Origin: Nemertoderma westbladi
Taxonomy: Eukaryota > Animalia > Xenacoelomorpha
Length of the DNA stretch: 64,000 nt
Reading direction: 5' to 3'
Assembly (NCBI GenBank): GCA_032718475.1
Contig: JAUCBJ010007166.1
Span: 62,001 to 126,000 of the forward strand
A model generated the notes under the pieces. It was not told where the DNA came from. It saw nothing but the letters and a program-made list of their open reading frames with translations, and made no database searches. The position numbers and the translations under genes are program-made. Shown here piece by piece: positions 1,373 to 41,245 of this stretch (position 1 is the stretch's first letter; the number at the start of each line of letters is the position of its first letter).

Positions 1373-3030
1373 TTACTACTACTACTTGGTCGAGCGAACT
1401 CGGACAGTGGAAATGAGATCCTTCCAGGCTTCCCGATTCTCCATAGTTGTCGCAATTTCGTTTCTCCTAAGTTCAGTATCCCTTTCAAGTTGATCTATAT
1501 ATATTATGGCCAGTCGTCCACGACTACGCTTTCCATGAGTTGGTTGCCAGAAAAGTCGATCTGGTATGACCTCGTCTTTACTTCGCCAGCAGTGCCCACT
1601 GAATCGTAATCTGCGTTCATGGAGGGTGGTTGATACAGGTGGTATTGTACCATAAAGCTTGGCGTTTGTCATGTGTTGTCTCCAGCTGATGTTTAGGGCT
1701 GCCCTTAGTAGTCTTGTGTAGCAACCATCAATTCATTGTTGTTGTGATTTAGTCAGTGTCCAGGTCTCACCCCCATATAAAAATACACTTTCCACTGTGG
1801 CTCGAAGGAACGTAGTCTTCAGGTGCCTGGAGAGATCTGATTCCAGATGGTATCCATTTTTTATGGATGCATATATTTTTTGTGCATCTGCTAGGGTATT
1901 AGAGAGCAGGGCGATGTCATCCGCAAAGTCGGTGTCTGTGACTGTAGTTGCCGGATATCTACTACTTCTGCGTTCTTGAAGTGTGAATCCCAGGTCTTCA
2001 CCCTTTGTGGCCGTCCTCATTGCGTAATGCAGCACAATTACAAATAGTAATGGTGCTAATGTGTCACCTTGCAGTACGCCAGCCAGGATTGAGAAAAACT
2101 CAGTTTCACCATCTGGTGAGAGTACCTGCGCTTCTGTGTCACAATATAACAATCCAATGCCAGCAACAATTACTTCTGGTATTCCATAAGCTCTTAGGAT
2201 TTCAAGCATTTTACCTCTACGGATGGAGTCGAATGCCTTCTTGAAGTCCACAAAAGTCATGACAGCGGGGAGATTCTTTGACTTAATTCCTTCAATCAGT
2301 CTCCGTAGTGCAAGTATCTATTGTTGATCTACATGGTCGAAATCCGTTTTGGCTCTTACTCAGTAGTTTCTCTATGTGAGGCCTAATCCTATATAGAATC
2401 ATTTTATTGTATATTTTGGCAGGTACCACAATCTGACAGATCCCACGATAGTTTGTTGGTATGCCGAGGTCTCCTTTCTTGCGGAGAGGCTTTAGTTGAC
2501 CTTTAGTCCAAATTGGTGGTGGCTTTTCCCCTTTTAACATCCGGTTGCAAACATTCAATAATGGTCTGTTTAGCACTCCGGTTTTCCATACCTCCGCTGG
2601 GATTTCATCTAATCCACTTGCTTTATTATTGGACATGCTTTTTATGCTTCTTTGGAGTTCGGCAGGTGTGAAGTCCCCTGTTTCTATAGGTAGTGTCTTG
2701 TCATATATTTTCCTTGTTGGGCTGACCTCGATGTTTGGTGGCTGCCCAAGCACGTTGCTGAAGTGATTTGTCCACTTCCCAACACGTTCTTCAGGACTAT
2801 CGGCTTTGAGGCGCCCCTTTGCACAACTTTTCCGACCAGATACCTCATTTACAGTTTGCCAGGTAAGTCTTGATTGTTGCTGTATGTGAGCAGTTGTAAT
2901 TGCTTCAGTTTTATCCTGTATGTACTTTTCCTGGCTGATGTTGTAGGCCAATTTAAGATCGTCCTTAGCTTTCTCAACCTTGTTAATGTTTTCGGTTGTT
3001 GGTTGCTCGGTTTTAACTTTGTAGGCTATC
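1373..3030 (-). mobile_element. RTE-clade LINE, 5'-truncated and degenerate
   Basis: Minus-strand RT motifs KASGLDEIPAE, KKGDLGIPTNYRGI, QNGFRPCRST, FVDFKKAFDS, GVLQGDTLAPLLF, FADDIALL, LYGGETWTL, RRLRFSGHCWR. The element ends in a (TAG)n tail (TACTACTACTAC near 1373-1385 on +). Confidence 0.9.
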
Positions 3031-4066
3031 TTAAGATAGTGATGTGATGTTACTGGGGTCGAATATAGTGCTGTCTTTGAGGTCATCAGCGAAAAGATGA
3101 ATGAGCTGAGTGAGTAGAGTTGAAACATCATCCACACATCCAAGGAACAAGAAAACTCCATCAACACTTCCCTGAGGAACACCGCTGTCAACAGGTAGCC
3201 ACGGTGATGTTTTCCCACTGATGTTGATGACCACGCATTGGTATCTACAAGAGAGAGAAATGCCCGAAACCAATTTAATAACTTGCTGGTTATTCCATAT
3301 TCCAGTATTCCAAGGGCCTGCAATTTGACAATCAGTCTCTGGTGTGGCACTGAATCAAAGACTTTCTGAAAGTCCAAGTATGCAGTGATTACATGCGATC
3401 ATCTAGTACTTTGAACCAATGGAAATGGAAGATACAATCAAGTAGTTGTAGAGTGCATGCTGCATGATCGCCCTTTCTGGAAACCTTAATGGTCATCTAG
3501 GGTATAACAGTATAAGGTTATTTTCCTTCATTTAGCTGTATGTTTCATTGACAACGTTTTGTTCCATAACTTTGCAGACCTCTGATGTTAGACTGATAGA
3601 TCTGAAGTTTTCAAGCAAATATTTACAGTACTACCATTCTTAAATTGTGGAGAAATGTTGGCGAGCTTCCAATTAATTGGTTGGTAGGGCTCCTTCATTC
3701 ATGGAATTATTCAATAATGAAGCCAGGGGTTCAGCAATTGTATCAGATAGTGCTTTTATAACTTGTGGATAAACTTGATCAGGACCAGTAGCATCAGACC
3801 CTCTCATTTCGTTGATTGACTAAAGAACTAATTCATATGTGAAGTTGATGGTAGATATGCTTGAATTAATTTATTGAGAATAGAAAGAAGATGTAAAAGG
3901 CTGAAAGGTCTTCTTTTGTAAATGCAGTATATATGGAAATATTCATTTAAAAGTGCAGCATTTTCGATATCCTGATATCAGCTGTAGCAAACGAACCATC
4001 ATCCTTCCTGAGGCACTGTATTGCTGGTCTTGCCTTTGCCCGTATAAATTTCCAAAAGATTTTGGG
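3031..4066 (-). mobile_element. Decayed CR1/L2-group LINE ORF2 fragment (target of LTR element 1)
   Basis: DFQKVFDSVPHQRLIVKL, WLPVDSGVPQGSV, LFADDLK and NPKIFWKFIRAK in broken minus-strand frames. Confidence 0.75.
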
Positions 4067-4071
4067 GTTAC

Positions 4072-5346
4072 TGTAAAAGCTTCTGTGGGATATAACTGGC
4101 CCCTTTGCTTCGCAATCCAGTTTCCCCCCAGGCGCTGGAATACTCTAAAAAGGTTCTCTAACTGTATAAATATTCCCCTCGCCCTCAAGGTACCATTACA
4201 GGTGTTTTAACGGACATAAAAGTCATTTTGCTATATACGTGTTTTAGCGGACATGGTAAGACAAAAAACCTGCAATGCGGCAAATACCTTTCATAGCTTA
4301 GCCGTGATGATTCATATTACGACATCTAACAGCTGGTTGCTGACATGGAAACAGCCATTGGATGCATGGTTCTTTGTTTGGCTTGAGCCAATCAGAGCGA
4401 TTTTTCCTGTCGATGTGTAGCTTTTCGGTCGATCATAAGGAGTGTGTTCAGTCTTACTGTTTTTTCTTGATACTTTGTTGTTATTGCTGTCTAGGCCAGG
4501 AACAACGGCTCTAGAATCAATTCGTTTCATACTTTTAGAAGAAACATTGGTAGGCTAAAATTATAGAGCGTATGACTGTTATCTAATCAATTCAATGCAA
4601 TTCTTAACAATTTCATTCACAATTCAATACTTTGTTGTTATTACTGTTCAACATACATTATTATACTGCTATTTACTGTTGTGTTTGGTTGAATATTATT
4701 TGGAGAACATATATAAAGAACCCAAATTTCCCAATTTTCTTGATACACTACAGGTTAGAGAGACGGGTTATATATAGCGATTGCGACTTATATTGTTGTG
4801 GTTTGTAGTGAATTTAATGCTATTTGATAAGCACTACATTGGTCCGTTGCTATTCCCTTTATATATGATAAAATTCATTGACGGTCGGCAAATTAGTGAG
4901 CAGTATTGTGTGTTACCAGTAGTGTGCATGATTGTGATTGATAACTAAGCATTTCCTAAAGAATGCGCCTCATACGTGAATCATAAGCCTTACCGACTTA
5001 CCGTTGTGATTAGTATAAGTCATATCTCTGTTTACTTAGATAGAGCGCCACGTCCTAAAGGAACTGTTAATATTTCCCGAAAGTAAATAATATTAGTCAG
5101 AAATTAATTATTAACGATCAATCGAATAATACAATACAGTAAGCTTCACTGCAATAATAATTTAAGCCGACAGAATCCAGTCTCCCGGGATTATCCAGCG
5201 GGTGAATGGACGCGCACTAGGCTGGCTTCTGCTAATGTTGTGTTTATTGGTATTAAATATTTGTCTTCTTCTAAAGTATATTATAAACCAAAAGACATAT
5301 AAATTTTGGCAGGTTAAACTGCTAAAGGTCTTCAAAAGCGGGTACA
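4072..5346 (+). repeat. 5' LTR of element 1
   Basis: TGTAAAAGC...GGTACA; direct repeat of 15402-16676. Confidence 0.97.
4572..4582 (+). promoter_or_regulatory. Predicted transcript 5' end / self-primer of element 1 (ATGACTGTTAT)
   Basis: Exact reverse complement of the 11 nt following the 5' LTR. CCAAT-type boxes lie upstream (about 4357, 4388 and 4546). The TSS is inferred, not observed. Confidence 0.7.
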
Positions 5347-5357
5347 ATAACAGTCAT
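5347..5357 (+). promoter_or_regulatory. Non-tRNA primer-binding site of element 1 (ATAACAGTCAT)
   Basis: Abuts the 5' LTR, has no TGG start, and is complementary to 4572-4582. Confidence 0.75.
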
Positions 5358-5689
5358 TGACTTTATTGCAGTAAGCAATAAAGTTGAAAGTACCGATCGA
5401 CCGGTAAAACCTGAACCGGAACTTCTGTAGGTCAGTAGGCCCAACTGCCAGAACCGGTACTGCGGTAGGTCCGTAGGTCCAACTGCCAGAACTGGTACTT
5501 CTGTAGGTCCGTAGGCCCAACTGTCCTAACCGGTACTTCCAGTATAAGTACATTAGTATTATTCGATTTTGATTATTGCATACCGGTAGGCTGTTTAAGA
5601 GATTAGGGACTGTACACCCCTTGTTTCTTTTGGAGCTTACTTATTTCTGTTAGTTTTATTTACATGTAAGTTAATATTGAGCTGAAGAC

Positions 5690-6290
5690 GTGTAAGTCTG
5701 CTCAGATTGTTCAGATAATTGTAGGCCGGACTGTTGTCAGATTGTTGTTGGGTTTGGAGAGATTACGGCGTGTGTGGAGTTTGTCCGATAGAGTGCCAGT
5801 TAGTAAGTTGGGGCAGCCATTGCTGTAAGGTCAATCCCCTCTTAAAGAATAAGTCGTACTACCGTGTTAGAACGCATACTAACTAACAATTTTGGAATCT
5901 GCACATACTGTAGTTTATTTAGGCTTGACAGTATTCTGCCAGCGTTTTGGCTTGTGTTTGTTTGTGTGGTCTGTTCAGATACCGTAATAGTTATTACTCA
6001 GATATTTTGTAGGCTGGATTGTTGTCTAGCTATTATTAGGTCTGAAGAGATTGCTGCTTGTGTAGAGTTTGTTTGATAAAGTGCCAGTTAGTAAGTTGGG
6101 GCAGTCATAACTGTAAGGTCAATCCCCTCTTAAAGAATAAGTCGTACTACCGTGTTAGAACGCATACTAACTAACCGTTTTGGAATCTGCACATACAGTA
6201 GTTTATTTAGGCTTGGTGGTAGTCTGCCAGCATTTGGTCTGTATTTTGTTTGAGTATTCAGTACGGGTAGCGTAATATTTATTATTCAGA
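5690..6290 (+). repeat. 288-bp tandem duplication in the 5' UTR of element 1
   Basis: CTGTAAGGTCAATCCCCTCTTAAAGAATAAGTCG... occurs at 5823 and 6111. Confidence 0.9.
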
Positions 6291-7580
6291 GTTTATGCGA
6301 TTATTCGCAACATTCATGTCCCCAAGTTTATTCCTACAGTAATTGTGTTTGTTACACATCCGTTATAGTTAAATTAACCCCGGTACTACACGGGCTGCTT
6401 GGCGTAGGACAAGACTGGTGACTTTGTGCTCTGGTCACTCCAGCAGATGCCGTGGTTCTTTTAACTGTTCAAGTATATTTAACTACTGATTATTTGTTGT
6501 ACCAGTACTTGTACCTAATTTAGGGTTTAGTGTACAGTGCTTTCCGAAGTAATTAGTGTGTAGGCAGTATATTTGTGTTGTAAAGTGGTTAATAGGCACG
6601 CTGGATCTTGTAGTCCGCGGTAATTAACTTCTAGGTAGGAACACTCCGTGATACATAACGTAGTACCTATAGCGATACGGTTATAGGTCGTCAGGCGGTG
6701 GTATTTTCCTATCTGGACAGTGCAATATATTTACTACTACTTATTATTTTCAAATACCGTAGTACCCTGTCCGTTGTAATAACCAGAAATCTAACCCTTT
6801 GCTAGGCTGGTTTGTAGACTTCCTGTAAAATTACCCTAAAAATTCGTACGTAATATTTTTGTTGTGTTTAATTAGAGAATTAATCTCACCCGTATCGTAA
6901 GTAATTTGTAGTATTAAGTAACTTAGGTAAATTAGAATTATCTGTTTTAGTGTCCCATAGGTAGCACTTCACTGAGAGCGCACAGCTTCTGTGTAGTGAC
7001 TTCCCCCAGAAATAATAACATTTATTTCAAATATTGACAAAACCCTTTTTAAACGGGTATATATATATTATAAATCAACTCAAACGATTTATAAATAGTA
7101 GGCCTGCCATACAACAACTAGGTCTCAAAATCAGTTGGACTACTGCTTAAATAACGGTAACAAAGTAAGTTAAAGTAACCAAGTAATCCTAAAATATTCA
7201 GAAAATCAATTATTCTAAAATAATTGACATACCGGTATTTATCATAGGCTTATTATATTTATTTCTATAAATTTGAGCTGAAATCATACCGGTATTCTGT
7301 AATAATTCTAGTTCATAATTATACTTATATATACTACAAGTGTAAGCTCTATACCGGTATTCACGATAGGCCTATTATATATTTATATATATTTGTGCTA
7401 AATTTATATACCGGTACTCTGTGACAAACCTAGTTTACAATACTTATATATATTATAAGTGCATACCGGTATTCTAATATACTGCAATAAATTACCGGTA
7501 CTAGGCCAACGGTCATACTGAATTACTAGACTTGCTTTAACTGTAACTATAGCAGTAGGCATTCAACTGTATAGCTAAAC

Positions 7581-10500
7581 ATGTCTGACACTCAGCAAAA
7601 CCTGTCAGACAGTCTAATCGATACAACCATCTGTGACACAGATAGGAGTGTGGAGCGTTTAAGAAAGGAGTTCAGCTCACCTCCTACTGAAAGAAAAGTC
7701 ATCCCTCCAGTAGTGATATCGGACCCTAAGCTAATCCAACACCGTAGGTCTATCATCGGCACTCGGGCCCAAGTCAAACGGAACCAGGAAGCAGCTGGCC
7801 CACAGCAGCAACAGCCTAGTCAAGAAACTTGTTCCCAGCGATCAGACAGCTCCAGTAGTTCGGATACTGTCGAACTGACCCCCGAACGCGGATTGCAGAT
7901 GACGACTAAAGCCTACTCGGACCCCCTTCTCACCCTTCCTGCCGCAGTGCTAACAACTATATTGATTGCGGTGGAGGAACATCAAGCAGATTGGGCGAGA
8001 AATAAGCGAGCGACCCAAGATGATTATGCGGGATACGCCAGGGAAGAATTGATGTCTATTGTCGAGTCACAATGGAACTTTCCCGGACCCGGACTCCCGT
8101 TAGATCTGTCCGAGGCTACTTGGGAAGATATACACAGGATGGGAGTGGCTAAAGATACGATGGATCCAGCTGTTTGGAAGAGGTCGGCAGCAGGATATGT
8201 GCAGGGATTCTTCGGCTCCTTAGAGAGATTAGAAGAACAACTGTTTCGACAACCCCAAGGACCTCAAGAGCAGGAAGAACTGCTATATCAAGTACGCGAA
8301 AGAACCCTACGCATTCGACTAATCCTATCGGCTTTTGAGGAAACTTCCAAAAGAAGACAGGACACGTCGCTGCAGGTTGCTGTCAAAACTTGGTTCCAGC
8401 GGGTAGGTCTCCAAGTGCAAGAAACAGACCAGTGGAAATCCCAGCTGTCTGAGAGACTAACTCATGAAGAACCAACCGATGCCACCCTTTCTCAAGTGGA
8501 AGGCGAAGAGACCTCAGAGAAACCACGAACGAGAGACACCATCGACATTTATCTGTCCGACTATCAGCGATTCCTAGGAGACGAAGAGTTGAGGAGACGG
8601 CTGTCTGGACTTTCCCCCAATAGTGAAGGAACTCAGCGTGTGTTAGACTCAATCGATGCTGAAATGTTAGCTGCTAACCAAGCTGAGTTTGATGAAAAAC
8701 TCCGCCTCACTAGAGTCCAAGAAGAACTAGTAAAGAAAAAACGGATAGAGGACCGAAAGGCAGCTGCAGTAACAGCGGCAATGGCCGAAGTGGAAGCAGA
8801 AAGAAAGGCAGCTGCAGTAACAGCGGCGGCAGAAGCAGCAGCAGAAAGAGTAACAGCGGCGGCAGAAGCAGAAAGAAAGGCAGCGGCGGCAGAAGCCGAA
8901 GCAGAAAGAAAAGTGACTGGGGCAGCAGCAAAGGCAGTGGCAGAAGCAGAACGGAGAGCCTCTGAGGAGACTGCCCAACTGGAGTTGGAAAATCTGCAAG
9001 AGACGCAAGACAACATAAATAAACAGTTAACTGCTAGTCACATGCAGATGATGAGAAAATCTACTCCCAAACGCCAGGGATATACGTCATCGGAGGAAAG
9101 CGAAACCACCGATCCTGAAGGCGGAGGAAATAGATCTCGTCTAAGTCGGCGTAGAAAAACATCTTACCGTCACAAATTGCCTGATTTGCCCCCAGCTGTT
9201 AGAAGAAAACTAGCTAGCACAGACTTAAGTAGTATAGAACCTACAGATCAAATTATTAAGGTCAAAAGACTCCCTACTATAGTTGATGAGCCTGAAATAA
9301 TTAGGCCTGTCGTTCCCAAAGTCACACCTGTGCTAGAGACCCCTGTACTTCCAGAGCTTAACTCTAAGTTCCCTTTACACAGTACTACACTGCCTGTACC
9401 CGGTAGAACAGTCCATGAGAATATTCCTGTCCTGGAAGCTGAGAGAGAAATCAAAGATTTGTCTCCCGTCGTCCCACGTCAGCCCGCTACAATGTTGGCG
9501 ACTCCCGCTTCGGCGGTTGAGTGGGTAGAGGAGGGACGGCGGGGGATGAATCTCCTGCTCGGACAGATGCAGGAGACTGTCCACCAGCTTAAGGGAACAG
9601 TAAGGGAAAGTAGGGCCGAATTGCAAGAAGTGCAGCAAAGTATCGCGCTAGAACGCGACAAATTAGTCAATATACAAAAGGGAATACCAATACCCCCTGT
9701 AACATTGTGTCAACCTGTTAGGTCTGAAGTATTACATGCGCAAGGTGTGGAGCCTACACGCATCTATACTGCTAGTGAAGTTGAAACTCCTATAGCAAAC
9801 CCTATTAAGGGTGATTATAGACCTGTTATTAATGATATTCCCTATAGACCTGATAATGATCCGAGAAATTTATATACCGATAATTCGATATTAAATAACA
9901 CGATGGCCCAAGAAAGCTTTACGCGGCAGATGGCTAGAACAGAAGCCCTCCAAGCGGTCAAAGTGGGAGAGATCGTCAAATTCAATGGAGATGAGATGAA
10001 ATGGTTACCTTTCAACGAATATTACAAAGATAGTATACAAAACTCTGTACTATCTAACGAAGAGAAACTTAGGTTCCTCATCAAGTGCTTGGAAGGACCT
10101 CCCAGGTTAATGGCGTTAAAGTTTATTGGACATCCAGATGGATTAAGACAAGTTTGGGATACATTAAACATCAGGTATGGTAACAAAGATAACATAGCTA
10201 AGTATTTGTATGCAAAATTAGTAGCCCCCCGACACTTCCTTAGTAGCGGGATTATAGAGTTTTCTGATGAAATTCAGGAGATCTGTAGACAATTGGACTG
10301 GTTAGGTAAGTCTCATGAATATCAGAGTTCAATGGTTATTGGAGCAGTAGTCTCTACTTTACCAAAGGGTGGAGTATGTACACGCTGGGACAAGAAAGTG
10401 TTGTACATGAATGAACAACAACGACGAAGTCCTACTATGGCTGATCTCATGTCCTTCTTAGATGGTGAGGTAAAACTACAACTCATCAAGCAGTCCAGAG

Positions 10501-11831
10501 AGAAAACATCGGAAAATAAGGTAAGTGAGAAACCCTTTTTTAGGAAAAGGATAATACCAGTGTGTTATACTGACGACGGCGAAAGCCAAGCTTCTCAAGA
10601 AGAGGACAGCGGGAAAGACACAGCAAAATCTTACTATGACAACAAGACCTATAAAGACATAAGTAAATACAAGTCTCGAATCAGTGACAGGAGAGAACAG
10701 GTAACTACAACTCCTCCTACGTCTCCTAAGAGAATTCACGGAAGAAAGCCCGAAGAAAGAACGAGAGTGCATAACGTTACCCAAGGTAAGGTGAGTAACA
10801 TCAAACCAAAATGTGCGCTGTGCGACGGGCCCCACCGTTTGAGTGCGTGTGCTGAATTTCTAAAGAAATCCCCTGTAGACAGACGTACAGTCCTGTGGAG
10901 TAAGCGGTTATGCTATAATTGCCTCAGATCAGGACACCAACGGCGAACCTGTTACTCCGACGTAAAGTGTGCAAAGTGTGGCGCGAAACATCACATCTTG
11001 TTACACAGTGAGTTCGAACGAGACAACCCGAGTCAGGTAAGTGAGCCCGAACTACATGTCCAATTCAGTGATGTAAATGACACTGATCAAGAGTCTGAGA
11101 TGGAAGGATTCTATACTGACGAATTCTCCGACGCCAACGAATCCTGTTACCTAATAAATACCTCAGTGTATCGAGCACTTACTTATGAAAAGGACACCAA
11201 CAATGAGTTTCCCCCAACTACTTTTGCCAAACAACCATCTTGGAAAGCTCCAACTTCCAACGTAGGAATCAGAGAATTTCCTGTAGTGCAGGTAAGAGTT
11301 CATGGTCCTAACAAAAGTTACATAGTGAACGCCCTCCTTGACTCCGGCAGCACAGGAACATTCATCGATCAAGAACTAGCCGAAGATATTTTTGCTGGAC
11401 AACCCAAATTCCGGACTAAATTGAATATGTCAGGAATTATGCAGGTTTGGAAATCTACCCTAACGGCAGACTACTATGTAGGTGTGTTGTCCACCCCCCA
11501 GGATAAATTAGGAGCACAAGGTATAAGGTCGGTAAAAATGGTGGCTATAAAGAACTTCGCTGCTACCCAAGCAGACCTTTATAATTGGGACGAGGATGAG
11601 AGCATCCAACATCTTAAGATACCTCGATTCCAGACAGATTATCCTGGAGTGCAAATACTCATCGGCCAAAACGCGCATGAGGCGCTCGAGACATTGGAGA
11701 AACGGCCTGCTCAACCGCAGCCACTACAAACCTATGCGGTAAGAACTAGAGTAGGTTGGTACTTCACTGGCCCTTCCCGTAGAACTCTCAAAGAGAGATT
11801 ACCTCAACAACAGGTATACCAAGTAAAGTAA
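7581..11831 (+). CDS. BEL/Pao Gag-protease polyprotein (1416 aa)
   Basis: Ala/Glu-rich coiled-coil N-terminal half; DUF1759-like Gag (KFNGDEMKWLPF...LSNEEKLRFLIKCLEG...LNIRYG); three Cys/His knuckles (CALCDGPHRLSAC, CYNCLRSGHQRRTC, CAKCGAKHHILLH); aspartic protease ALLDSGSTGTFI...ILIG...TRVGW. Confidence 0.92.
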   Translation: MSDTQQNLSDSLIDTTICDTDRSVERLRKEFSSPPTERKVIPPVVISDPKLIQHRRSIIGTRAQVKRNQEAAGPQQQQPSQETCSQRSDSSSSSDTVELTPERGLQMTTKAYSDPLLTLPAAVLTTILIAVEEHQADWARNKRATQDDYAGYAREELMSIVESQWNFPGPGLPLDLSEATWEDIHRMGVAKDTMDPAVWKRSAAGYVQGFFGSLERLEEQLFRQPQGPQEQEELLYQVRERTLRIRLILSAFEETSKRRQDTSLQVAVKTWFQRVGLQVQETDQWKSQLSERLTHEEPTDATLSQVEGEETSEKPRTRDTIDIYLSDYQRFLGDEELRRRLSGLSPNSEGTQRVLDSIDAEMLAANQAEFDEKLRLTRVQEELVKKKRIEDRKAAAVTAAMAEVEAERKAAAVTAAAEAAAERVTAAAEAERKAAAAEAEAERKVTGAAAKAVAEAERRASEETAQLELENLQETQDNINKQLTASHMQMMRKSTPKRQGYTSSEESETTDPEGGGNRSRLSRRRKTSYRHKLPDLPPAVRRKLASTDLSSIEPTDQIIKVKRLPTIVDEPEIIRPVVPKVTPVLETPVLPELNSKFPLHSTTLPVPGRTVHENIPVLEAEREIKDLSPVVPRQPATMLATPASAVEWVEEGRRGMNLLLGQMQETVHQLKGTVRESRAELQEVQQSIALERDKLVNIQKGIPIPPVTLCQPVRSEVLHAQGVEPTRIYTASEVETPIANPIKGDYRPVINDIPYRPDNDPRNLYTDNSILNNTMAQESFTRQMARTEALQAVKVGEIVKFNGDEMKWLPFNEYYKDSIQNSVLSNEEKLRFLIKCLEGPPRLMALKFIGHPDGLRQVWDTLNIRYGNKDNIAKYLYAKLVAPRHFLSSGIIEFSDEIQEICRQLDWLGKSHEYQSSMVIGAVVSTLPKGGVCTRWDKKVLYMNEQQRRSPTMADLMSFLDGEVKLQLIKQSREKTSENKVSEKPFFRKRIIPVCYTDDGESQASQEEDSGKDTAKSYYDNKTYKDISKYKSRISDRREQVTTTPPTSPKRIHGRKPEERTRVHNVTQGKVSNIKPKCALCDGPHRLSACAEFLKKSPVDRRTVLWSKRLCYNCLRSGHQRRTCYSDVKCAKCGAKHHILLHSEFERDNPSQVSEPELHVQFSDVNDTDQESEMEGFYTDEFSDANESCYLINTSVYRALTYEKDTNNEFPPTTFAKQPSWKAPTSNVGIREFPVVQVRVHGPNKSYIVNALLDSGSTGTFIDQELAEDIFAGQPKFRTKLNMSGIMQVWKSTLTADYYVGVLSTPQDKLGAQGIRSVKMVAIKNFAATQADLYNWDEDESIQHLKIPRFQTDYPGVQILIGQNAHEALETLEKRPAQPQPLQTYAVRTRVGWYFTGPSRRTLKERLPQQQVYQVK

Positions 11832-12245
11832 TGGGAAGTGGAGAGCAGTGAGGTGGACGACCCAACTGAGGGAACACCATACTCCTCAGATAATGACGGT
11901 ATTAACTCCAATGTAGATCAATGGAGACATTGCCTTGGGACGATTAATCCAGCCGACATCGCTTCCAGAGGAGCAACTCCTCAAGAACTGATAGATACTC
12001 CAGGCTGGTTAGGTGGATCCGACTTCTTAAGTAAAGAAGAAGAAGAATGGCCTCCTCATCTTACCCCGGCGGAGATTAGACAGGCCAAGGGAGCGGAGAA
12101 AATAATACAACAACTCAATTGCCCAGCTGGTCGTTTATGTTTACTGGAAAGAGACCGAAAACTGTCCGGAAACTATGGAAGGCAAGATACTCTTCCTACG
12201 ACCACTTCCCTAATCCGACAAATATCTAGGGACTCCATAACGTAA
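11832..12245 (+). pseudogene. In-frame continuation after a TAA: remnant of the BEL RNase H / peptidase A17 C-terminus
   Basis: WRHC..TINPADIASRG..WLGGSDFL..WP motif. Same frame as the 7581 ORF; element 2 has GAA at the stop position. Confidence 0.8.
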
Positions 12246-13873
12246 TAACATATGGAGTGGGCGTGTGACTATATCATTTTATAGTTGTTTTTATTTTATA
12301 TTTATGTATGTATTATTATGTAATTTTATTATAATCGTTTTCTTTAATTTTATTTAGTAGAATGTTATTTTAGTGATTATTTAGTAGATTAGTGCAATAT
12401 ATTAGTGTTTATTACGTACGTAATTACTTATAATATATATTTAGTGCGACGGCGAGAAATAATTATTTTTCTCTTTCCTTACTGTCCGTATCATATTATA
12501 AATACGTGACTACAGTAAGATGAAATGTCCGTACTTATTAAAGTACAATAAAGCCACTACTATATTCAAGTATTATTGGTAGGCAGAGTATTAGGAATGC
12601 AAAGTTCAGATCCTCGTGTCTCGGCTAAGCCAAGCTCTGGGTAGACCTTGGAAACGACTTGCCTCTTCACACTGACATTGCTTCGTGCGATATTGCTCTT
12701 CTACCTTATATTAAATAATACATATAGTAGCGTGATGTCCCTCTAACAGTAGCGTAAAAACGCAAATAAATCTGTTAAACTTTTTGACCATCTGTAATTC
12801 TAGTCGATTAAGATATCGCGGCACCCACCGATATACTTGAAAGACAAATTCTAGAATCAATGGTTAACGTCCCCAGACAAGTTCTGGAATAAATCGGTGC
12901 CCATCTTAAATATTAATTAATATTTATTAAAATCTGTAAAATTCAGATCCGTTAACAATTCTAGTCGATTAAGATATCGTAGCACTTCCCGATACTCTTA
13001 AAAGACAAATTTCATAGAATTAAGGATCCTATGTCCCCAGACCTGCTCTGGAATCAAATTGTGTCAATTTTAACATCAAATAATAAAATTCACGGGAATA
13101 AATTTAAATTCATATTTTTAAATGAATTTCATAAATTGTCATTTTGTACAATTTATAACATTCCCAAAATTCCATTAATTAATAGATCATGGGAGCGGAG
13201 ATTCATCCTATTGAGTGCATTAGAGTGCGAGAATCTCCAACATATAGTCAATAGCCGATAAAATTAACAAAATCATGCATAAAGAGGATATTGACAATTA
13301 AAGAATTATTATTAAATAGCATCCCAGATCTGTATGCATGAGAATTACCCTAATTCTACCGCTAGCATTCCATAATGTCACCATAGCAACACCCACGCTA
13401 GAATTAGAAGCAAGTTAAAAGAACAATAGAAAGCTTGTCCCATTGCCTAGCATAGAGAACATAGCACACTGTTAGTATCCAAGGATACACAGTAATCAAC
13501 GTGACATTCTGGAAGGCACTGACTAACGGACAAATGGCCTGTGTGTGTGCAGTTATTGACAGTTGTGTGGAATTTGTGCGTTTATAGGTGAATGTTACTG
13601 CTAAAGTATGTTTACAGTAGCTAGTCGCAATTGTAAAAATAGCCCGACTCTCCTATAGAAAGAACCTAAGTGGATCCAAGCCTTTGGGACGGACAGTGGA
13701 GTGACTTGTGCCGGTTATCGTTGTCGTGCTGTTGCTACATGTTGGCGTAAACACCGCGACGACGGTACATCGGCGCTGAGAATCCCACTGTCCGGGGGCA
13801 AAGATAAATAGGCAGCGACGCCCGCTCGCTTAAATACAAACTTATTTGATATTAATAAACTCAGATAGCAGAT

Positions 13874-15323
13874 ATGACGGAGTTGATAGAAGATGATCTT
13901 GGTATTAGGGAGCGATATACTCTACCTTTGCAAGCATTTGTGGATAGCTTAATACGCGGTGAAGCCGATCCAACCATTACGGAGGACGATGGTCGTTATA
14001 TCGAACCGCCGATGTCCCAAGAGCAACTTGCGCGTGAATTGGACTATCGAAAATCCACCTCTCGCTATACGCATCGTAATAGTACGTATATGGACTTCCT
14101 AACTACCGGCCATCCTATCGATTTACATGATACGGACGATGTAGACACCGAAAGGGAAATGGTTCTATTTAAATATCATACCCAGCGGCGTCGTAACGAT
14201 AAACCGAGATTAGATCACGAAAATTCTATTCGTAACAGACTGGGAAGATGAACCAATATGCCTAGAATCTGAGGAGATTCAGCCTATCGCGCCCCGGACC
14301 AGCGACAACGATTACATCATAGAATGGTATCAAGGCCCACAGTGTCTCACTGCGTACGATTATCGCCATGCCAACTATGTTTCTAGGCAACGTTGTCGGT
14401 TATGCGCATCGAGAGACCACGATACGCCCATGGACACCAACGTCCGCTGTTCCTATTTCCAAGAACAACCGACTATGGAAATTTATTGCGCATATTGCAG
14501 ACTCAATAACCTGCATATCTTTGCGGTTTGCCCTCAATTTATGACTCAATGTCACCATTGTCAACTAAAGGGACATGCTAGTTTCGACTGCCCTTTTAAT
14601 CACGATTTGGAAAGCGTAGATGAAATGATCACACTGCGTTACATCAGAGCTTGGGAAGCGAACGCTGATTTACATTGTGATTCGCGCCATCGCTATTATC
14701 CCGGACGCGCTTACGAAGGAGTTTATGCGTTCCATCCTTATTTATTCGCTTCTGTTGAACAGGAATCACGCATATCGAGTTACGAGCTACTGAAGCGCGT
14801 CGGAGAATGTATTTCAACTAAATTCGTACGCAAATTTCTCAGGAGTGTTAATCCTAGCGACCTTCATTCCTATAACTTAATCAATTATATCCGTCAGGAT
14901 CCGGACTATGGAGACTTGTTTGTTAACTCACATCCCGAGTTGCAGGAAGTACATCGAAGGCCTTACGAATACCGAGCCCGCGAACGCGAGTTGGAAAGGA
15001 CCATTAAACCCCGGAAGTTTCTAACTGCCTATGGTCCACCCACGGCCCTCATTCAGACCACTCGAAAAGGACCCGTAAGAGCGGCTGTCTTGAAACGAGC
15101 TCTCAAAGCCGTTAGACCCCTCTCACCTGACGTTGATGTCAATCAACCCGGTACTTCGACTGGCGGATACACCGACCATAATCCTACACCCTCTGATGCA
15201 ATCATATTGCACCCTTCACCCAGGAGTTATAGCCCTCCTTGTAAAGTGGCTCGCCCCAAAGAGAAAAGGACTCTTGCTAGCTTTAAAAAACTGCGTAAAC
15301 GCTGTCCGCGCAAGAAAGACTAA
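13874..15323 (+). pseudogene. Accessory 3' ORF of element 1 (about 480 aa, CCHC-type knuckles), split by a frameshift near 14243
   Basis: The frame of ORF 14430-15323 is open back to 14244 (EDEPICLESEE...CRLCASRDH). It contains CAYCRLNNLHIFAVC and CHHCQLKGHASFDC and a basic C-terminus. Both ends are homologous to element 2 ORFs. Confidence 0.7.
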
Positions 15324-15401
15324 CTGTTTAGAGTATTTACGTATATTAGAAACTGTGATTTTGTATATTTTATAGACTCAAATCCCATTTTCTGGGAGCG
15401 G

Positions 15402-16676
15402 TGTAAAAGCTTCTGTGGGATATAACTGGCCCCTTTGCTTCGCAATCCAGTTTCCCCCCAGGCGCTGGAATACTCTAAAAAGGTTCTCTAACTGTATAAA
15501 TATTCCCCTCGCCCTCAAGGTACCGTTACAGGTGTTTTAACGGACATAAAAGTCATTTTGCTATATACGTGTTTTAGCGGACATGGTAAGACAAAAAACC
15601 TGCAATGCGGCAAATACCTTTCATAGCTTAGCCGTGATGATTCATATTACGACATCTAACAGCTGGTTGCTGACATGGAAACAGCCATTGGACGCATGGT
15701 TCTTTGTTTGGCTTGAGCCAATCAGAGCGATTTTTCCTGTCGACGTGTAGCTTTTCGGTCGATCATAAGGAGTGTGTTCAGTCTTACTGTTTTTTCTTGA
15801 TACTTTGTTGTTATTGCTGTCTAGGCCAGGAACAATGGCTCTAGAATCAATTCGTTTCATACTTTTAGAAGAAACATTGGTAGGCTAAAATTATAGAGCG
15901 TATGACTGTTATCTAATCAATTCAATGCAATTCTTAACAATTTCATTCACAATTCAATACTTTGTTGTTATTACTGTTCAACATACATTATTATACTGCT
16001 ATTTACTGTTGTGTTTGGTTGAATATTATTTGGAGAACATATATAAAGAACCCAAATTTCCCAATTTTCTTGATACACTACAGGTTAGAGAGACGGGTTA
16101 TATATAGCGATTGCGACTTATATTGTTGTGGTTTGTAGTGAATTTAATGCTATTTGATAAGCACTACATTGGTCCGTTGCTATTCCCTTTATATATTATA
16201 AAATTCATTGACGGTCGGCAAATTAGTGAGCAGTATTGTGTGTTACCAGTAGTGTGCATGATTGTGATTGATAACTAAGCATTTCCTAAAGAATGCGCCT
16301 CATACGTGAATCATAAGCCTTACCGACTTACCGTTGTGATTAGTATAAGTCATATCTCTGTTTACTTAGATAGAGCGCCACGTCCTAAAGGAACTGTTAA
16401 TATTTCCCGAAAGTAAATAATATTAGTCAGAAATTAATTATTAACGATCAATCGAATAATACAATACAGTAAGCTTCACTGCAATAATAATTTAAGCCGA
16501 CAGAATCCAGTCTCCCGGGATTATCCAGCGGGTGAATGGACGCGCACTAGGCTGGCTTCTGCTAATGTTGTGTTTATTGGTATTAAATATTTGTCTTCTT
16601 CTAAAGTATATTATAAACCAAAAGACATATAAATTTTGGCAGGTTAAACTGCTAAAGGTCTTCAAAAGCGCGTACA
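15402..16676 (+). repeat. 3' LTR of element 1
   Basis: Direct repeat of 4072-5346, preceded by a PPT-like TGGGAGCGG. Confidence 0.97.
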
Positions 16677-17439
16677 GTTACTAGGGCAGTAGGCAGGTAG
16701 GGGCATCACTTGCAATTTTACATTCGTAGGAAACCTTCTGTTTAATTACTGAAATACATTTGATTCTAGCTTGCTTGTAGGCTGGGAATGAAGAAAGTGT
16801 TTTTATATATATAAATTATAAATATAATATAGGCCTAACTATAATATATAATACAAACAGACAAATACAATAATACACAAATACCTATATATTATTCTAT
16901 AGTATGAACTATAAACGTTACATACCCCAAGAAGATGCATGCACAGTGGTATCTATACAGCTATATGATATATGTACTGCTTACTGTATGTACAGTATGT
17001 AGTTAGAGGCATATAATGATAGAAAGCACAACAACAAAGCCGTTGAAATTTCAGCTCACAGTGCAGTTTTCAGTTATATCAGTTATCATCAAACCATCTA
17101 AACTGTTATGAAATGTGCAATGTTTCCCTATCGGGAAATTTCTGATATCATTGTGAGAGAAATCCATGGTAAATTTCCGTATAGGGAAATATATGCATGT
17201 TTCCCTATAGGGAAACAGGCAAAGTTAATTTTCGCCTGTCTGTAAAACCGCCAGGGTAGTAGTTTGCTGCCTTGGGGCAGTACTGTAGTTATATTGAAGA
17301 TAGGGTAGAGGTGAATGACCTAGTATATCTCACTTAATGCGCTATGTCCTCAGTGAATGCGCCATAGCGATTATGCAAAAATTTCCCTATTGGGCTAATT
17401 TCCCAGACTGCAAAGGATGACAATTTGCGTTCCTGATGG

Positions 17440-17915
17440 CGATGTCTATCTCATAATTCCCTAACGTAATCAATTTTCCAATTATCCCAAATAAGTTGGC
17501 TGCTTTCTCTTGGTAACGTAAACGATTGATAATGATTGTTCTGGTCAACTCTAAATTTTCTGCACGTGCTGATAATGTTGGAAGAGCACATAGTCATGGC
17601 CCACAAGAAAGTGACTAGGAGTAAGTAGATTGTAGTTTTCATCATTGTTAGATGACAGGAAAGTCAATGGGCGACTGTTAACAGCAAGCAGCCTTGCAAG
17701 ATATTAACAGTTTCTGCATTTTGTCGTATTGCAGAGTGGCTCTACCCATCGCTTTGGGGAGGTTGGATTTGATTAGACCTACACATCTCTCAATAAAGCC
17801 ATAAGCCGATGGATATCTGGCAATATTAAACAGCCAAGTGACACTTAAGTCACCAAATTCACGTTTAACCAAATCGTGGATAAGAAACTTATTGTAAATG
17901 CGAAGTTGAGACAAT
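17440..17915 (-). pseudogene. Decayed BEL/Pao integrase C-terminus plus DUF5641-like remnant
   Basis: WLFNIARYPSAYGFIERCVGLIKSNLPKAMGRATL resembles the BEL integrase motif W.F...AP..GG..ER.V..VK..L....G. IWDNWKIDYVREL resembles the FW.RW..EYL..L motif. Confidence 0.65.
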
Positions 17916-22849: not shown

Positions 22850-25800
22850 TTACGTTATGGAGTCCCTAGATGTTTGAAGGATTAGGGAGGTGGTCGTGGG
22901 AAGAGAATCTTGCCTTCCACAGTTTCCGGAGAGTCCTCCATTCCCTTCCGATAAACACAAACGACCGACTGGGTGATTGAGTCGCTGCATCCTGAATACA
23001 ATTCCAGGTTTCCTCTTCGTCCTGGAATAGTGACGATAGAAACATCGCTCAAAGTATATGACGGCGTCACAAAGCCGATTCCAGGAGCTATAGTGGTCCG
23101 TCGCTCTCTGCAGGAGAGGTGAGAGTCCCTGCGAGACATCTGATGTTCCAGAGCTCCAATCGCTCTCTCTGATCTTCATGAAGGATCCACTCGCGGTGGG
23201 GAGGTCCAGATCCACGGCGTCGTCCCTGGCAATATGTAATACCGACAGATCTGTCCCGGGTTCAAATAACTCCGCTCCACCCGTCCTGGTTTTAGGTTTA
23301 ACTTTCTCCGCTCCCTTGGCTGGTCTAATCTCAGTCGGAGTAAGATGGGGAGGCCATTCATCCTCCTTACTCAGGAAGTCGGGTTCACCTAACCGGTCTG
23401 TAGTATCTGTCAGTTCTTGAGGAGTTGCTCCTCTGGAAGCGATGTCAGTTGGATTAAACTTCTTGGGGCAATATCTCCATTGATCTACATTGGAGCTAAG
23501 ATTGTCATTATCTGAGGAGTGTGGTGTTCCCTCAGTTGGGTCGTCTCCCTCACTAGTATCATCTTCCCATTCACTCACCTGGCAGACGCGATCTTGAAGC
23601 AGTCTTTCCCTGAGCGTTCTACGGGAAGGTCCAGTAAGGTACCAACCTACTCTAGTTCTTACCGCATAGGTCTGTAGTGGCTGCGGTTGAGCAGGCCGTT
23701 TCTCTAATGTCTCCAGCGCCTCATGCGCGTTTTGGCCGATGAGTATTTGCACTCCAGGATAATCAGTCTGGAATCGAGGTATGTTAAGATGTTGGATGCT
23801 CTCATCCTCGTCCCAATTATAAAGGTCTGCTTGAGTAGTAGCGAAGTTCTTTATAGCCACCATTTTCACTGACCTTATGCTGTGTTCTCCTAGTTCGTCC
23901 TGGGGGGTGGACAACGCTCCTACATAATAATCAGCTGTTATTGTAGATTTCCAAACTTGCATAATGCCTGACATGTTGAGCTTAGTTTGGAACTTGGGTT
24001 GTCCAGCAAATATATCTTCGGCTAGCTCTTTATCGATGAATGTTCCTGTACTACCGGAGTCAAGGAGGGCGTTCACTACATAACTCCTCTCAGGTCCGTG
24101 AACCCTTACTTGCACCACAGGAAACTCTCGGATCCCTACATTGGAAGATGGCTCTTTCCAAGATGGTTGTCGCTCAGAAGTAGTTAGAGTAAAGTCGTTA
24201 TCTGGATCCTTTTCATAGGTGAGTGCTCGATACACTGCGGTATTTATCATGTAACAGGATTCGTTTTCGTCGGAGAACTCGTCTGTATAGAATCCTTCCA
24301 TCTCAGATTGATCAGTGTCGTTCACATCACTGAATTGGACATGTAGTTCGGACTCACTTACCTGACTCGGGCTGTTTCGTTCGAATTCCGTGTGCAACAA
24401 GATATGATGTTTTGCGCCGCACTTTGCACACCTTGCGTCGGAGTTACAGGTTCGCCGTTGGTGTCCTCGTCTGAGGCAATTATAACACAACCGCTTATCC
24501 CACATGACTTCACGTCTATCCTTTAGTGATTTCCTCAGGAATTTATCACACGCATTTAAACGGTGGGGCCCGTCGCACAGCACACATTTGGGCTTGATGT
24601 TACTTACTTTAACATGTGCTGTGTGGTGCACACTTGTTCTTTCCTCGGGCTTTCTCACCTGAATTCTTTTAGGAGACGTAGGAGGGGTTTTTTGTACCGG
24701 TTCCCTTCTGTCATTGGGTCGAGACTTGGATTTACTTACCTGATCTTTAGGCATTTTATTGACATAAGATCTGTCAGTGTCTTTCCCGCTGTCCTCTCCT
24801 TGAGAAGTTTGGCTTTCACCGTCGTCGGTATAACATACTGGTATTACCCTTCTCCTAGAAACGGGTTTCTCACTTACCTTACTTTCCGCTGTCTTCTCTC
24901 TGGACTGCTTTATGAGCTGTAATTTCACCTCGCTATCCAGGAATGACATGAGATCAGCCATGGTAGGGTCTCGTTGTTGTTGTTCCATCATATATAACAC
25001 CTTCTTGTCCCAGCGTGTACCTACTCCACCCTTGGGCAAAGTAGATGCTAAGGCTCCTACAACCATAGAATTCTGGTATTCATGAGACTTACCTAACCAA
25101 TCTAGTTGTCTACAGATCTCCTGAATCTCATCGGAAAACTCTATAATCCCGCTGCTAAGAAACTTTCGGGGCGCCATTAATTTCGCATATAAATACCTAG
25201 CTATGTTAGTCCTATTACCATACCTGATGTTTAGTGTATCCCAAACTTGTCTTAATCCGTCTGGATGTCCAATAAACTTTAACGCCATTAACTTGGGAGA
25301 TCCTTCCAAGCACTCGATGAGGTATCTAAGCTTTTCTCCATTAGATAGTACAGAGTTCTGTATGTTATCTTTGTAATATTCATTAAAAGGTAACCATTTC
25401 ATCTCATCTCCATTGAACTTGACGATCTCTCCAACCTTTACCGCTTGCCGGGCTTCGGTTCTAGCCATTTGACGCGTAAAACTTTCTTGGGCCATCGTGC
25501 TATTTAATATCGAGTTATCGGTATATAAATTTCTCGGATTATGATCCGGTCTATAGGGAATATCACTATCAACAGGTCTATAATTACCCTTAATAGGGTT
25601 CACTATAGGAGTTTCTACTTCGCTAGCAGTATAGATGCTTGTAGGCTCCACACCTTGCGCATGAGATACTTCAGACCTAACGGGTTGACACATTGTTACA
25701 GAGGGTGGTGGTATACCCTTTTTTAAGTTTACTAATTTATCGCGTTCTAACGCGATACTTTGCTGCACCTTTTGCAACTCTAACCTACTTTCCCTTACTG

Positions 25801-27766
25801 TGCCCTTGAATTGCTGGACAGTCTCTTCCAACTCTCGGACCTGTTGGGAGGAGCGTATCCGATTCTCCTTCATCTCTCCAAGGAGAATATCCATCCCCCG
25901 CCGTCTCTCGTCTACCCAATCAACCGCCGAAACGGGATCCGCCAACGTCGTAGCGGGCAGACGAGGGACAACGGGCGACAAATTTGGAATATTTCGCTCG
26001 GGGTCCAGGACTTGAACTGTCTCCTGGGCAGTTCTACGGGGCACAGGTAGCTTAGTGCTATGCAGAGGGAATTTAGAGGTAGTTTCAGGGAGCACAGGTG
26101 TGTCTATCACCGAAGGGGTGATTTCAAGAACAGGCCTAATTATTTCAGGCTCATCTACTATAGTAGGGAGTCTTTCTATTTTAATTATTTGGTCTGTGGG
26201 CTCTGTACTACCTAAGTTGGTGTTATTTAGTTGCCTTCTAACAGCTGGAGGCAAATCAGGCAATTTCTGACGGTGGAATGTTCTTTTACGTCTACTTAGA
26301 CGAGATCTATTTCCCTTGCCTTCAGTATCGGTGGTATCGCCTTCCTCAGATGATGTATATCCCTGTCTTTTGGGAGTAGATCGATTCATCATCTGCATAT
26401 TACTAGCTGTTAACTGTTTATTTATGCAGTCTTGATTCTCCTGAATGTTTTCCAATTCTAATTGGGTGGTTTCTTCAGCCGCTCTCCGTTCTGCTTCTAC
26501 CACTGCCGCTGCCACTTTTGCCTCTGCCGCTGCCTCTGCCGCTGCCGCCTTTCTTTCTGCTTCTGCAGCTGCCACTGCTGCTGCTACTGCCGCTGCCTTT
26601 CTGTCTTCTATGCGTTTTTTCTTTACTTGTTCTTCTTGTTCTCTAGCTATGCGGAGTTGTTCATCGAATTTAGCTTGGTTCGCCGCTAACCTATCCACAT
26701 CAATCGCATCTAACACGAGTTTGGCTCCTTCGCTATTAGGGCTAAGTCCCTTTAACCTTCTCCTCAACTCTTCATCTCCCAAAAAACTGATAGTCTGACA
26801 GATAGATATCAATGGCATCCTTCTTATGCGGTTTCTCTGCCGTCGCTTCACTTTCCACTTGGGAAAAAGTAGCGTCCGTCGATTCTCCATGGGTTGAGCG
26901 CTCCTCCAACTGAGCTTTCCACTGAGCTGCTCCTTGAACCTGGCGACTCACCCGTTGAAACCAAGTTTTTACGGCAACTTGCAACGACGTGTCTTGTTTT
27001 CTTTTAGAAGCCTCCTCAAAGATAAGATTAGCCTAATCCTCAAAACTCTTTCTCTAACTTGATAAAGCAGCGATCCCTGCTCTTGAGGTCCTTGAGGTTG
27101 TTGAAACAGTTTTCTCTCTACTCGCTCCATAGAGCTGAAGAATCCCTGGGCGTATCCGGCTGCGGACCTCTTCCATACAGCTGGATCGATGGTTTCCTTG
27201 GCTACTCCCATCCGGTGTATGTCTTCCCAGGCAGCTTCTAATAAATCAAACGGGAGTCCGGGTCCGGGGAAGTTCCATTGCGACTCGACAATAGACTTCA
27301 GTTCTTCACTCGTGTATCCCGCGTAACTATCTCTAGTTGACCGTTGACTTCTCGCCCAATCGATCTGGTGTTCTTCCACCGCGATCAATAACCCAGCGAG
27401 CACGGCTGCAGGAAGGATGAGAAGGGGATCCGTATAAACCGCATCCGTCATCTCTGCTCTGCGCTCGGGTGTCAGCTCTACAGTATCCTCACTACTGGAG
27501 CTGCTGGGCCGCTGAGGAATAAGTTCTTGACTAGCGGGTTGTTGCTGTTCCGCTGCCTTTTGGTCCCGCTTGACCTGAGCTCGAGTGCCTATGATAGACC
27601 TACGATGTTGGACCAGCCTAGGTTCTGTTATTACTACTGGAGGGATGACCTTCCTCACAGTGGGAGGTGAACTGAACTTACGACCAGACGGTTGTACATC
27701 TCTATCTGAGTCGCAGATAGTTACATCTAATAAACTGTCTGACAGGTTCTGCTTAGTATCAGACAT
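22850..27766 (-). pseudogene. BEL/Pao Gag-protease polyprotein of element 2, broken by two small deletions
   Basis: Collinear with the element 1 ORF. Apparent 4-nt (near 27020) and 2-nt (near 26787) deletions with a stop at 26969-26971 between them. Knuckles, ALLDSGS and NPTDIASRG are retained. Confidence 0.9.
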
Positions 27767-29099: not shown

Positions 29100-29700
29100 A
29101 AATATTACGCTACGCGTACAAACTACTCAAACAAAATACAGACCGAACACTGACAGACTACTATCAAGCCTAAACAAACTACGGTATATGCAGACTCCGA
29201 AATGATTAGGGAGTATGCGCTCTAACCCAGTAGTGCGACTTATTCTTTAGTTGGGGGTTTACCTTACAGCGTTCGCTGCCCCTACTTCCTAACCGTACTT
29301 AATCAGACAAATGATCTACACACACTGCAATCCGTTCAGACCTAATAACAGCCGGACAACTATCCAGCCTACAAATTATCTAAATAAAATTATACGCTAC
29401 CCGTACAGACTTACACAAACAAAGTACAGACTAAACGATGGCAGACTACTCTCAAGCCTAAATAAACTACAGGACATGCAGACTCCGAAATGATTAGGGA
29501 GTATGCGCTCTAACCCAGTAGTGCGACTTATTCTTTAGTTGGGGGTTTACTTTACAGCAATGGCTACCCCAACTTCCCAACCGTTCTTTATCGGACAGGT
29601 GACCTACACACACTGCAACTCGTTCAGACTTAACAGCAATCAGACAACAGCTCAGCCTACAAATTGTCTGTACAATCTGATCAGGCTTACACGCCTTCTG
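29100..29700 (-). repeat. 288-bp tandem duplication in the 5' UTR of element 2
   Basis: CAGACTCCGAAATGATTAGGGAGTATGCG... occurs at 29191 and 29479. Confidence 0.9.

Positions 29701-41207: not shown

Positions 41208-41245
<38 letters not shown>

Follow-up and report, generated by a model that had tools for sequence, protein, structure and literature searches.

Evidence for a BEL/Pao family in Nemertoderma westbladi that lacks reverse transcriptase and integrase, retains constrained Gag-protease and 3' reading frames, and carries a predicted self-primer

How does a retroelement that encodes neither reverse transcriptase (RT) nor integrase continue to insert? This question is raised by a 64,000-nucleotide stretch of the Nemertoderma westbladi contig JAUCBJ010007166.1 (here called the window; all coordinates are positions within it). 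Comparison of the window with itself revealed two related BEL/Pao elements, E1 and E2, inverted relative to each other. An earlier note on this DNA had described them as a Gag-protease-only BEL lineage that is still being mobilized. The analysis presented here makes it almost certain that the family is without pol. The reading that we consider probable as a whole is that of a BEL/Pao family, abundant and with recent insertions, that has no RT or integrase and in which Gag, protease, and a second open reading frame (ORF) are under selection, Pol is borrowed, and reverse transcription is predicted to be self-primed.

The elements and their long terminal repeats (LTRs), target-site duplication (TSD), and polypurine tract (PPT) are as follows.
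4072-16676, + strand: E1, 12,605 bp, with a 5-bp TSD at 4067-4071 and 16677-16681
4072-5346, + strand: E1 5' LTR, 1275 bp, TGT...ACA
15402-16676, + strand: E1 3' LTR
31151-18395, - strand: E2, 12,757 bp
31151-29950 and 19596-18395, - strand: E2 LTRs, 1202 bp
15393-15401 (+ strand, E1) and 19605-19597 (- strand, E2): PPT, TGGGAGCGG, the same in both copies
5711-6290 (+ strand, E1) and 29090-29669 (- strand, E2): tandem units, two of 288 bp, in the 5' leader
31154-31538, + strand: third LTR variant, truncated, with 81% identity to the E1 LTR and 75% to the E2 LTR, adjoining E2

Each copy has the same order of parts: a 2.2-kb leader, ORF1, ∼1.6 kb of noncoding DNA, ORF2, and the PPT. The E1 LTRs differ from each other at 6 positions (99.5% identity), and those of E2 at none (100%). 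These near-identical pairs, the E1 TSD (GTTAC/GTTAC), the PPT, and the TGT...ACA termini common to both elements were all described correctly in the earlier note. Its statement that the LTR interiors of the two copies barely align holds for nucleotides 100 to 640 (54% identity) and fails for nucleotides 660 to 1275 (78%). An Rfam scan of 4000-31600 gave no match. Comparison of the E2 flanks found no matching TSD. The truncated third LTR abuts the 5' end of E2 in inverted orientation, and 24 consecutive C residues come after it (to 31562). A clean insertion of E2 into this LTR was rejected because the left part of the LTR is absent from the other flank of E2; the two flanks may have originated at different sites.

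The loss of pol was examined with a profile of the Pol regions of 34 full-length BEL proteins, picked by motif from 154 matches and run against the whole window in all six frames. Within the two elements, the profile matched only the end of the protease, the tail of RNase H, and, in E2, a weak connection-like piece (i-E, independent E value).
11907-12086 (+ strand, E1; i-E 4e-13) and 23497-23324 (- strand, E2; i-E 4e-10): RNase H tail match
23131-23009, - strand: connection-like piece of E2, weak (i-E 0.06)
11895-11910 (+ strand, E1) and about 23510-23495 (- strand, E2): first deletion junction, ∼510 codons lost
11907-12245, + strand: remnant of the RNase H tail of E1 with a short tail, integrase absent

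Neither RT nor integrase was found in any of the six frames of E1 or E2 with this profile, and a 4-protein profile agreed, which bears out what had been predicted for such a scan. A Pfam search of the three sense frames 3' of the protease gave no match in either copy. The in-frame jump from protease to RNase H tail that had been reported for both copies was confirmed: 62 residues separate the protease-end motif from the NPxD motif in E1 and in E2, against a median of 575 in the 34 full-length proteins. From NPxD to the end there are 99 residues in E1 and 201 in E2, against a median of 560. The first junction joins profile position about 60 to position 576-577, removes RT and most of RNase H, and is identical in position and frame in the two elements. 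RT, most of RNase H, and integrase had been thought lost at this one junction. This is correct for RT and most of RNase H; integrase was removed by a second deletion, 3' of the RNase H remnant, that is likewise common to both copies. E1 alone has an in-frame gap of 309 nt at 12103, where E2 keeps the segment. A Ty3 RT match was not counted as part of the element, since it arises from other alignment rows. Between E1 and E2 lies a decayed C-terminal integrase fragment (17424-17875, - strand; profile positions 939-1082, i-E 0.0015). It was rejected as a part of either element and belongs to a separate, older decayed BEL copy outside both.

The features of ORF1 are as follows.
7581-11831, + strand: E1 ORF1, 1416 aa
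9981-10367, + strand: DUF1759 capsid region of E1 (Pfam)
10812-11006, + strand: three Cys/His knuckles of E1
11340-11351, + strand: protease DSGS motif of E1
22850-27766, - strand: E2 ORF1, with frame breaks near 27021 and 26786

E1 ORF1 begins with a region of ∼780 aa that includes an Ala/Glu-rich stretch. The DUF1759 matches (E values of 1e-12 and 3e-13 for the two copies) assign a predicted capsid to ORF1. All nine invariant Cys/His columns of a 60-sequence alignment are kept in E1 and in E2. The DSGS motif and the downstream Gly columns of the protease are intact in both copies; the Pfam protease match is weak and below the cut-off. An ORF of ∼1400 aa had been described as largely open. 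E1 has such an ORF, and it ends at 11829-11831, so that the RNase H remnant lies past the stop. E2 has the two frame breaks, and after the one at 26786 it is open through the protease, the first junction, the RNase H tail, and the connection-like piece. No close relatives were found by a word search (four distant matches) or by phmmer against 1.84 billion representative proteins (best local identity, 24 to 40%). Exact sequence look-up gave 0 of 5 matches, none of 35 pattern matches in metagenome contigs was a relative, and none of 62 candidates (of lengths 92 to 296 only) was a relative of the RNase H remnant.

A second reading frame, ORF2, is present 3' of ORF1 in both copies.
13880-15323, + strand: E1 ORF2, 5' part broken, open at 14214-15323
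21207-19675, - strand: E2 ORF2, with nine stops from 20499 to 19989 in the frame in which it starts

The lesions of E1 ORF2 are stops at 13894 and 13906 and frame breaks near 13925 and 14250. The ends of ORF2 are common to E1 and E2, and the middles are unrelated. The ratio of nonsynonymous to synonymous substitution (dN/dS) in the shared ends is 0.23 (106 codons) and 0.19 (40 codons). The label "Gag-protease-only" is thus wrong, because ORF2 is constrained as well. The open part of E1 ORF2 has Cys/His clusters and a basic C terminus; zf-CCHC clusters of the atlas score up to 0.86 there, which is below 0.9 and serves as a lead only. Homology searches of ORF2 returned Pfam zf-CCHC_3 at an E value of 0.2 only, nothing from NCBIfam or PDB, 0 of 1081 candidates, and, for E2, nothing from the atlas. 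Our guess is that ORF2 encodes an accessory nucleic-acid-binding protein.

The standing of E1 and E2 within their family was assessed in contigs of four public sequencing runs (X1 to X4, of which X1 and X2 are from the same sample). The E1 stretch was present in 7 of 10 listed runs. Contigs matching 8 kb of E1 (7400-15400) numbered 51,793 of 2,536,511 in X1, 74,760 of 8,938,268 in X2, 19,355 of 1,581,921 in X3, and 519 of 15,198,257 in X4; the comparison is blind to relatives less than 80% alike, and contig depth is not copy number. Across 11700-12110, a fraction of 0.01 of the 999 matching contigs in X3 continued unlike E1, and one contig with a depth of 4629 (among eight listed pieces from X3) spans the first junction. 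Since only 1% of contigs leave the path at the junction, copies without pol dominate the family among contigs at least 80% alike, an outcome in favor of the earlier reading, which a majority of copies with pol would have refuted. Together with LTR identity, the contig counts identify a multicopy family with recent insertions. Five contigs among those listed from X3 depart from the E1 path at 11898. A contig of 556 to 589 nt, with a depth of 10 to 52, matches solely 11913-12061, at ∼83%, in X1, X2, and X3 (two samples). These departing and joining contigs are hints of a rarer relative that bears pol.

The contigs also bear on the lesions. At the ORF1 stop (11829) most contig depth differs from E1, and at the ORF2 stop (13906) 76 to 84% differs in X1 to X3, so that both lesions are minority states. 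One common variant has a disrupted ORF2, with 209 nt missing from its 5' part (13901-14111); a high-depth contig carries this gap in X1 and X3, and it is also seen in X4.

Selection was assessed from pairwise comparison of the two full copies. Across 1052 codons of ORF1, dN/dS was 0.23 (confidence interval [CI], 0.19 to 0.29), well below 1, where a value near 1 would have refuted the earlier reading; by part, it was 0.13 in the capsid, 0.10 in the protease, and 0.19 in 249 N-terminal codons. Ratios of 0-fold to 4-fold sites were 0.15 to 0.47. The 4-fold distances between copies were 0.23 to 0.57, against LTR-pair divergence of 0 to 0.5% within copies. Of the 11 indels in ORF1, 9 leave the reading frame intact, compared with 6 of 56 in two noncoding stretches. 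The stretch after the protease had a dN/dS of 0.43 (CI, 0.26 to 0.71). Among columns that are conserved in 75% or more of the 34 full-length proteins, the two copies coincide at all 62 in Gag-protease and at 12 of 16 in the RNase H remnant (Fisher P = 0.0013). The remnant is therefore relaxed relative to Gag-protease, which favors a single old loss of pol shared by both copies. That selection acted on the ORFs after pol was lost is, in our judgment, likely.

Two other accounts of the reading frames were considered. In one, the element would be a pure passenger, moved wholly in trans with even its Gag supplied, its ORFs decaying since selection ended. The two frame breaks in E2 gag despite identical LTRs fit this account, as does the state of ORF2, which is broken in both copies and in E1 at four places within ∼370 nt, beyond what 0.5% LTR divergence explains. 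The E1 stops at 11829 and 13906, however, are minority states by contig depth, and the ORF1 indels predominantly keep the frame; we regard the passenger account as very unlikely. In the other, the ORF would be kept for host use of Gag-protease, with copying a by-product. The zebrafish elements Bik-1 and Bik-2, reported as nonautonomous, gag-only, and with a developmental role, give a precedent, and the long N-terminal region is constrained (dN/dS, 0.19). Against this, selection is seen between multicopy mobile subfamilies and not at a fixed locus, and high copy number with lesions in young copies fits selfish spread. A host-serving Gag is the least credible of the accounts weighed here.

If Pol is borrowed, how is reverse transcription primed? 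The 10 nt that follow each 5' LTR contain no TGG; neither copy has a tRNA-type primer site, and the window contains no tRNA genes. Each LTR has instead a perfect complement of the sequence that directly follows it.
5347-5357, + strand: E1 primer-binding position, ahead of a predicted hairpin that extends to about 5387
4572-4582, + strand: E1 predicted self-primer (LTR nucleotides 501-511), perfect 11-nt complement of 5347-5357
29949-29938, - strand: E2 primer-binding position, different from that of E1 at 5 of 11 places
30701-30712, - strand: E2 predicted self-primer (LTR nucleotides 440-451), perfect 12-nt complement of 29949-29938

Both predicted primers end in the same LTR alignment column, and the pairing is at offset 0 from the LTR. 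The primers differ between E1 and E2 at 5 of 11 positions, and all five differences are compensated in the binding site; the match of each binding site to the LTR of the other element reaches just 6 and 5 nt. One fixed tRNA cannot fit both sites, given their 5 differences in 11 positions. Markov-drawn LTRs reached the observed pairing lengths in 20 of 20,000 draws for E1 and 15 of 20,000 for E2, and such an LTR complement was found at only 8 of 10,045 and 6 of 10,343 internal positions, respectively. In the folding model, the predicted pairing probability is ∼1.0 in E2. Priming across a splice junction was rejected, as the complement is contiguous within the LTR. In Tf1, the RNA's initial 11 bases pair with a site just after the 5' LTR, and an RNase H cut yields the primer. 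The primer is copied into the next primer-binding site in Tf1 and in tRNA-primed elements, which would explain the perfect compensation. In the relevant part of a plant survey, self-priming is recognized by a complement of at least 10 bp at an offset of 0 to 5, and it is listed for Tf1/Sushi, Tcn1, and TAR (PMC6317226); the pairings of E1 and E2 fall within these values. Taken together, these sequence features make Tf1-type self-priming of E1 and E2 likely.

A working model of the cycle can be proposed. Transcription would start at LTR nucleotide 501 (4572 in E1), and Gag-protease would be translated from the element RNA. Particles, made or shared with the element's own Gag, would copackage the Pol of a rare full-length relative. 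The borrowed RNase H would free the 11-nt primer as in Tf1, the PPT would prime the second strand, and the integrase of the helper would act on the shared termini to give the 5-bp duplication. Selection on Gag would come from an advantage in cis, with the element's own RNA preferentially packaged. Since copies that bear lesions (E2 gag and both ORF2s) were apparently still inserted, this cis advantage is not absolute; E2, whose LTRs are identical and whose gag is broken, suggests that copies with defects are carried too, unless assembly errors account for the breaks. That BEL Pol is borrowed is very probable. A more detailed version stands at about even chances: RT and integrase would have been lost once, in the distant past, the family would outnumber its helper by orders of magnitude, selection would maintain Gag, protease, and an ORF2 that swaps cassettes, the helper would provide RNase H in trans for self-priming, and primer and primer-binding site would coevolve within each subfamily.

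Several observations count against the model. No sequence of a full-length helper was recovered in searches of database proteins, of remnant candidates, or of metagenome contigs. E2 has no TSD and might have arisen by recombination or from a join made in assembly. The comparison of just two full copies does not allow dN/dS to be assigned to the branches after the loss of pol; work on Athila raises the caveat that pairwise dN/dS is possibly inherited from autonomous parents (PMC2410132). The remnant is also short of neutral, as its CI of 0.26 to 0.71 excludes 1, and E1 retains 14 of the 16 conserved RNase H columns, where full-length proteins have 13 to 16. The 248 codons after the protease in E2 contain no stops, compared with ∼4 expected under neutral drift (P = 0.02 at 0.185 per lineage and 0.10 at 0.1). 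Some constraint on this frame or tail thus persists. The earlier claim that the deletion predates the divergence of the copies accordingly stands in part: the relaxed remnant fits an old shared loss, and the remnant is not neutral. Two noncoding stretches, 6291-7200 and 12246-12900, are 92 to 94% identical between E1 and E2. Their divergence of 0.06 to 0.08 is far below that at synonymous sites, which points to recombination between subfamilies or strong constraint in cis and blurs a simple two-lineage history; the stretches are candidates for packaging signals or recently exchanged DNA. In addition, the primer pairing was noticed after the fact, and in the folding model of E1 the hairpin competes with it, leaving a pairing probability of ∼0.3.

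A barnacle BEL gene model, P0011 (XP_043211278.1), adds to these points. It joins the region after the protease to the RNase H tail at profile positions 62 to 574, nearly as in E1 and E2, so that a break at the first junction might recur. Such recurrence is central to a rival history, in which two diverged autonomous subfamilies recently made pol-less copies at the same points, by reverse transcription of spliced RNAs or at a deletion hot spot, and the low dN/dS was inherited. Drosophila copia has a spliced Gag-protease RNA. The remnant, in frame and below neutral, suits this history as well. P0011, however, is a single predicted gene model (a cluster of 1), collinear with the query and hence high in rank, and unlike E1 and E2 it keeps part of integrase; its junction could reflect a predicted intron, chance favored by the way the search selects, or a break that recurs. 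A pol gap occurs in 6 of the 154 proteins, P0011 included, and the other five break elsewhere. The 4 of 16 conserved columns that differ in the remnant (0 of 62 in Gag-protease), the sharing of both deletions, and the dominance of pol-less contigs also speak against recurrent loss, which we consider unlikely.

A further alternative concerns the primer, in which the pairing of LTR and leader would be an RNA structure for packaging or dimerization and an unrecognized tRNA fragment would be the primer. The inferred transcript start and the competing E1 hairpin leave room for it. Against it, the pairing begins with the base directly after the LTR, has the 11 nt known from Tf1, and falls within the length and offset of the plant survey, and the sites of the two copies differ at 5 of 11 places. 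This alternative is improbable, and self-priming with borrowed Pol is retained as the preferred account.

The remainder of the window contains other features. An open LINE (long interspersed nuclear element) ORF of 1171 aa, with endonuclease and RT (41616-45131, - strand), sits between two arrays of 7-bp units at 37147-41209 and 46954-50423 (583 and 498 copies); broken LINE RT fragments are found at 1733-3398 and 51002-51592 (both - strand). Two uninterrupted ORFs, for a DHHC palmitoyltransferase (61560-62570, - strand) and a DUF3105 protein (52745-53641, + strand), are intronless genes or retrocopies. Related palindromic repeats at 60511-61035, 62937-63789, and 31849-32449 resemble miniature inverted-repeat transposable elements.

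How do E1 and E2 compare with known systems? The profile of Belpaoviridae by the international virus taxonomy committee (ICTV) describes the family as metazoan infecting and gives an 18-nt primer site for tRNA-Arg/Gly (PMC8742986). E1 and E2 resemble BEL/Pao (Belpaoviridae, Semotivirus) in the DUF1759 Gag, the triple Cys/His knuckle, the protease motifs, the Pao-type RNase H tail, the TG...CA LTRs, the PPT, and the 5-bp TSD (E1 only). They differ in having no RT, no integrase, and no such tRNA primer site, and at ∼12.6 kb, with LTRs of 1.2 to 1.3 kb, they are at or above the range of the ICTV profile; their nearest database proteins are just 22 to 40% identical. They are a derivative of BEL/Pao and not an autonomous member.

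A parallel with plant TR-GAG had also been drawn. It is apt in that Gag is kept and pol is absent, as in the TR-GAG or GAG-PROT elements with Gag or Gag-protease; those are plant Copia or Gypsy elements, whereas E1 and E2 are BEL/Pao with ORF2 and the self-primer signature. E1 and E2 work like TR-GAG without being TR-GAG. Athila families without pol have ORFs under purifying selection and were moved in trans (PMC2410132), and in sugar beet 28 families retain GAG/PROT alone and 15 have additional decayed pieces of pol (PMC13570524). Such families also occur outside plants: the zebrafish family Bik-2 (BHIKHARI) has gag and lacks pol and env (PMC12067270). Bik-2 and the mammalian MaLR are, like E1 and E2, animal nonautonomous LTR families; they are endogenous retroviruses with, in the parts of the sources available, no protease named, whereas E1 and E2 are BEL/Pao.

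MaLR carries a gag-derived ORF. BARE-2, which the earlier note had also named, is a coding nonautonomous partner of an autonomous LTR element; it has no Gag and borrows it, the reverse of the case of E1 and E2, in which Gag is kept. The self-primers Tf1/sushi and Tcn1 (Gypsy) and TAR (Copia) are autonomous, whereas E1 and E2 would need RNase H in trans. In the literature searched, which left subscription papers and Repbase reports outside its scope, no paper on a pol-less coding BEL/Pao family or a self-priming BEL element was found. A term search of PMC554778 and PMC3118150 returned nothing on priming, the accessible sections of PMC3442997, PMC3286476, PMC4724089, PMC5395297, PMC3601003, and PMC6934838 contain no BEL case, and nonautonomous BEL-Pao copies are mentioned, in the text available, in a figure legend alone (PMC7642597).

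Coding LTR families without pol are thus known; the present family adds a BEL/Pao one, in which ORF2 is constrained and a signature of self-priming is present. Surveys based on RT are blind to such a family, which 1 to 2% of contigs in two public runs match. Since the family is invisible to these surveys yet abundant, the diversity of animal BEL/Pao elements may be undercounted. E1 and E2 also provide an animal test case for coding nonautonomous elements as parasites or partners. Their signature of self-priming differs from what the ICTV profile gives, priming by tRNA, and, if it is true in an element without pol, self-priming would work with RNase H supplied in trans, a setting distinct from that of the autonomous Tf1, Tcn1, and TAR.

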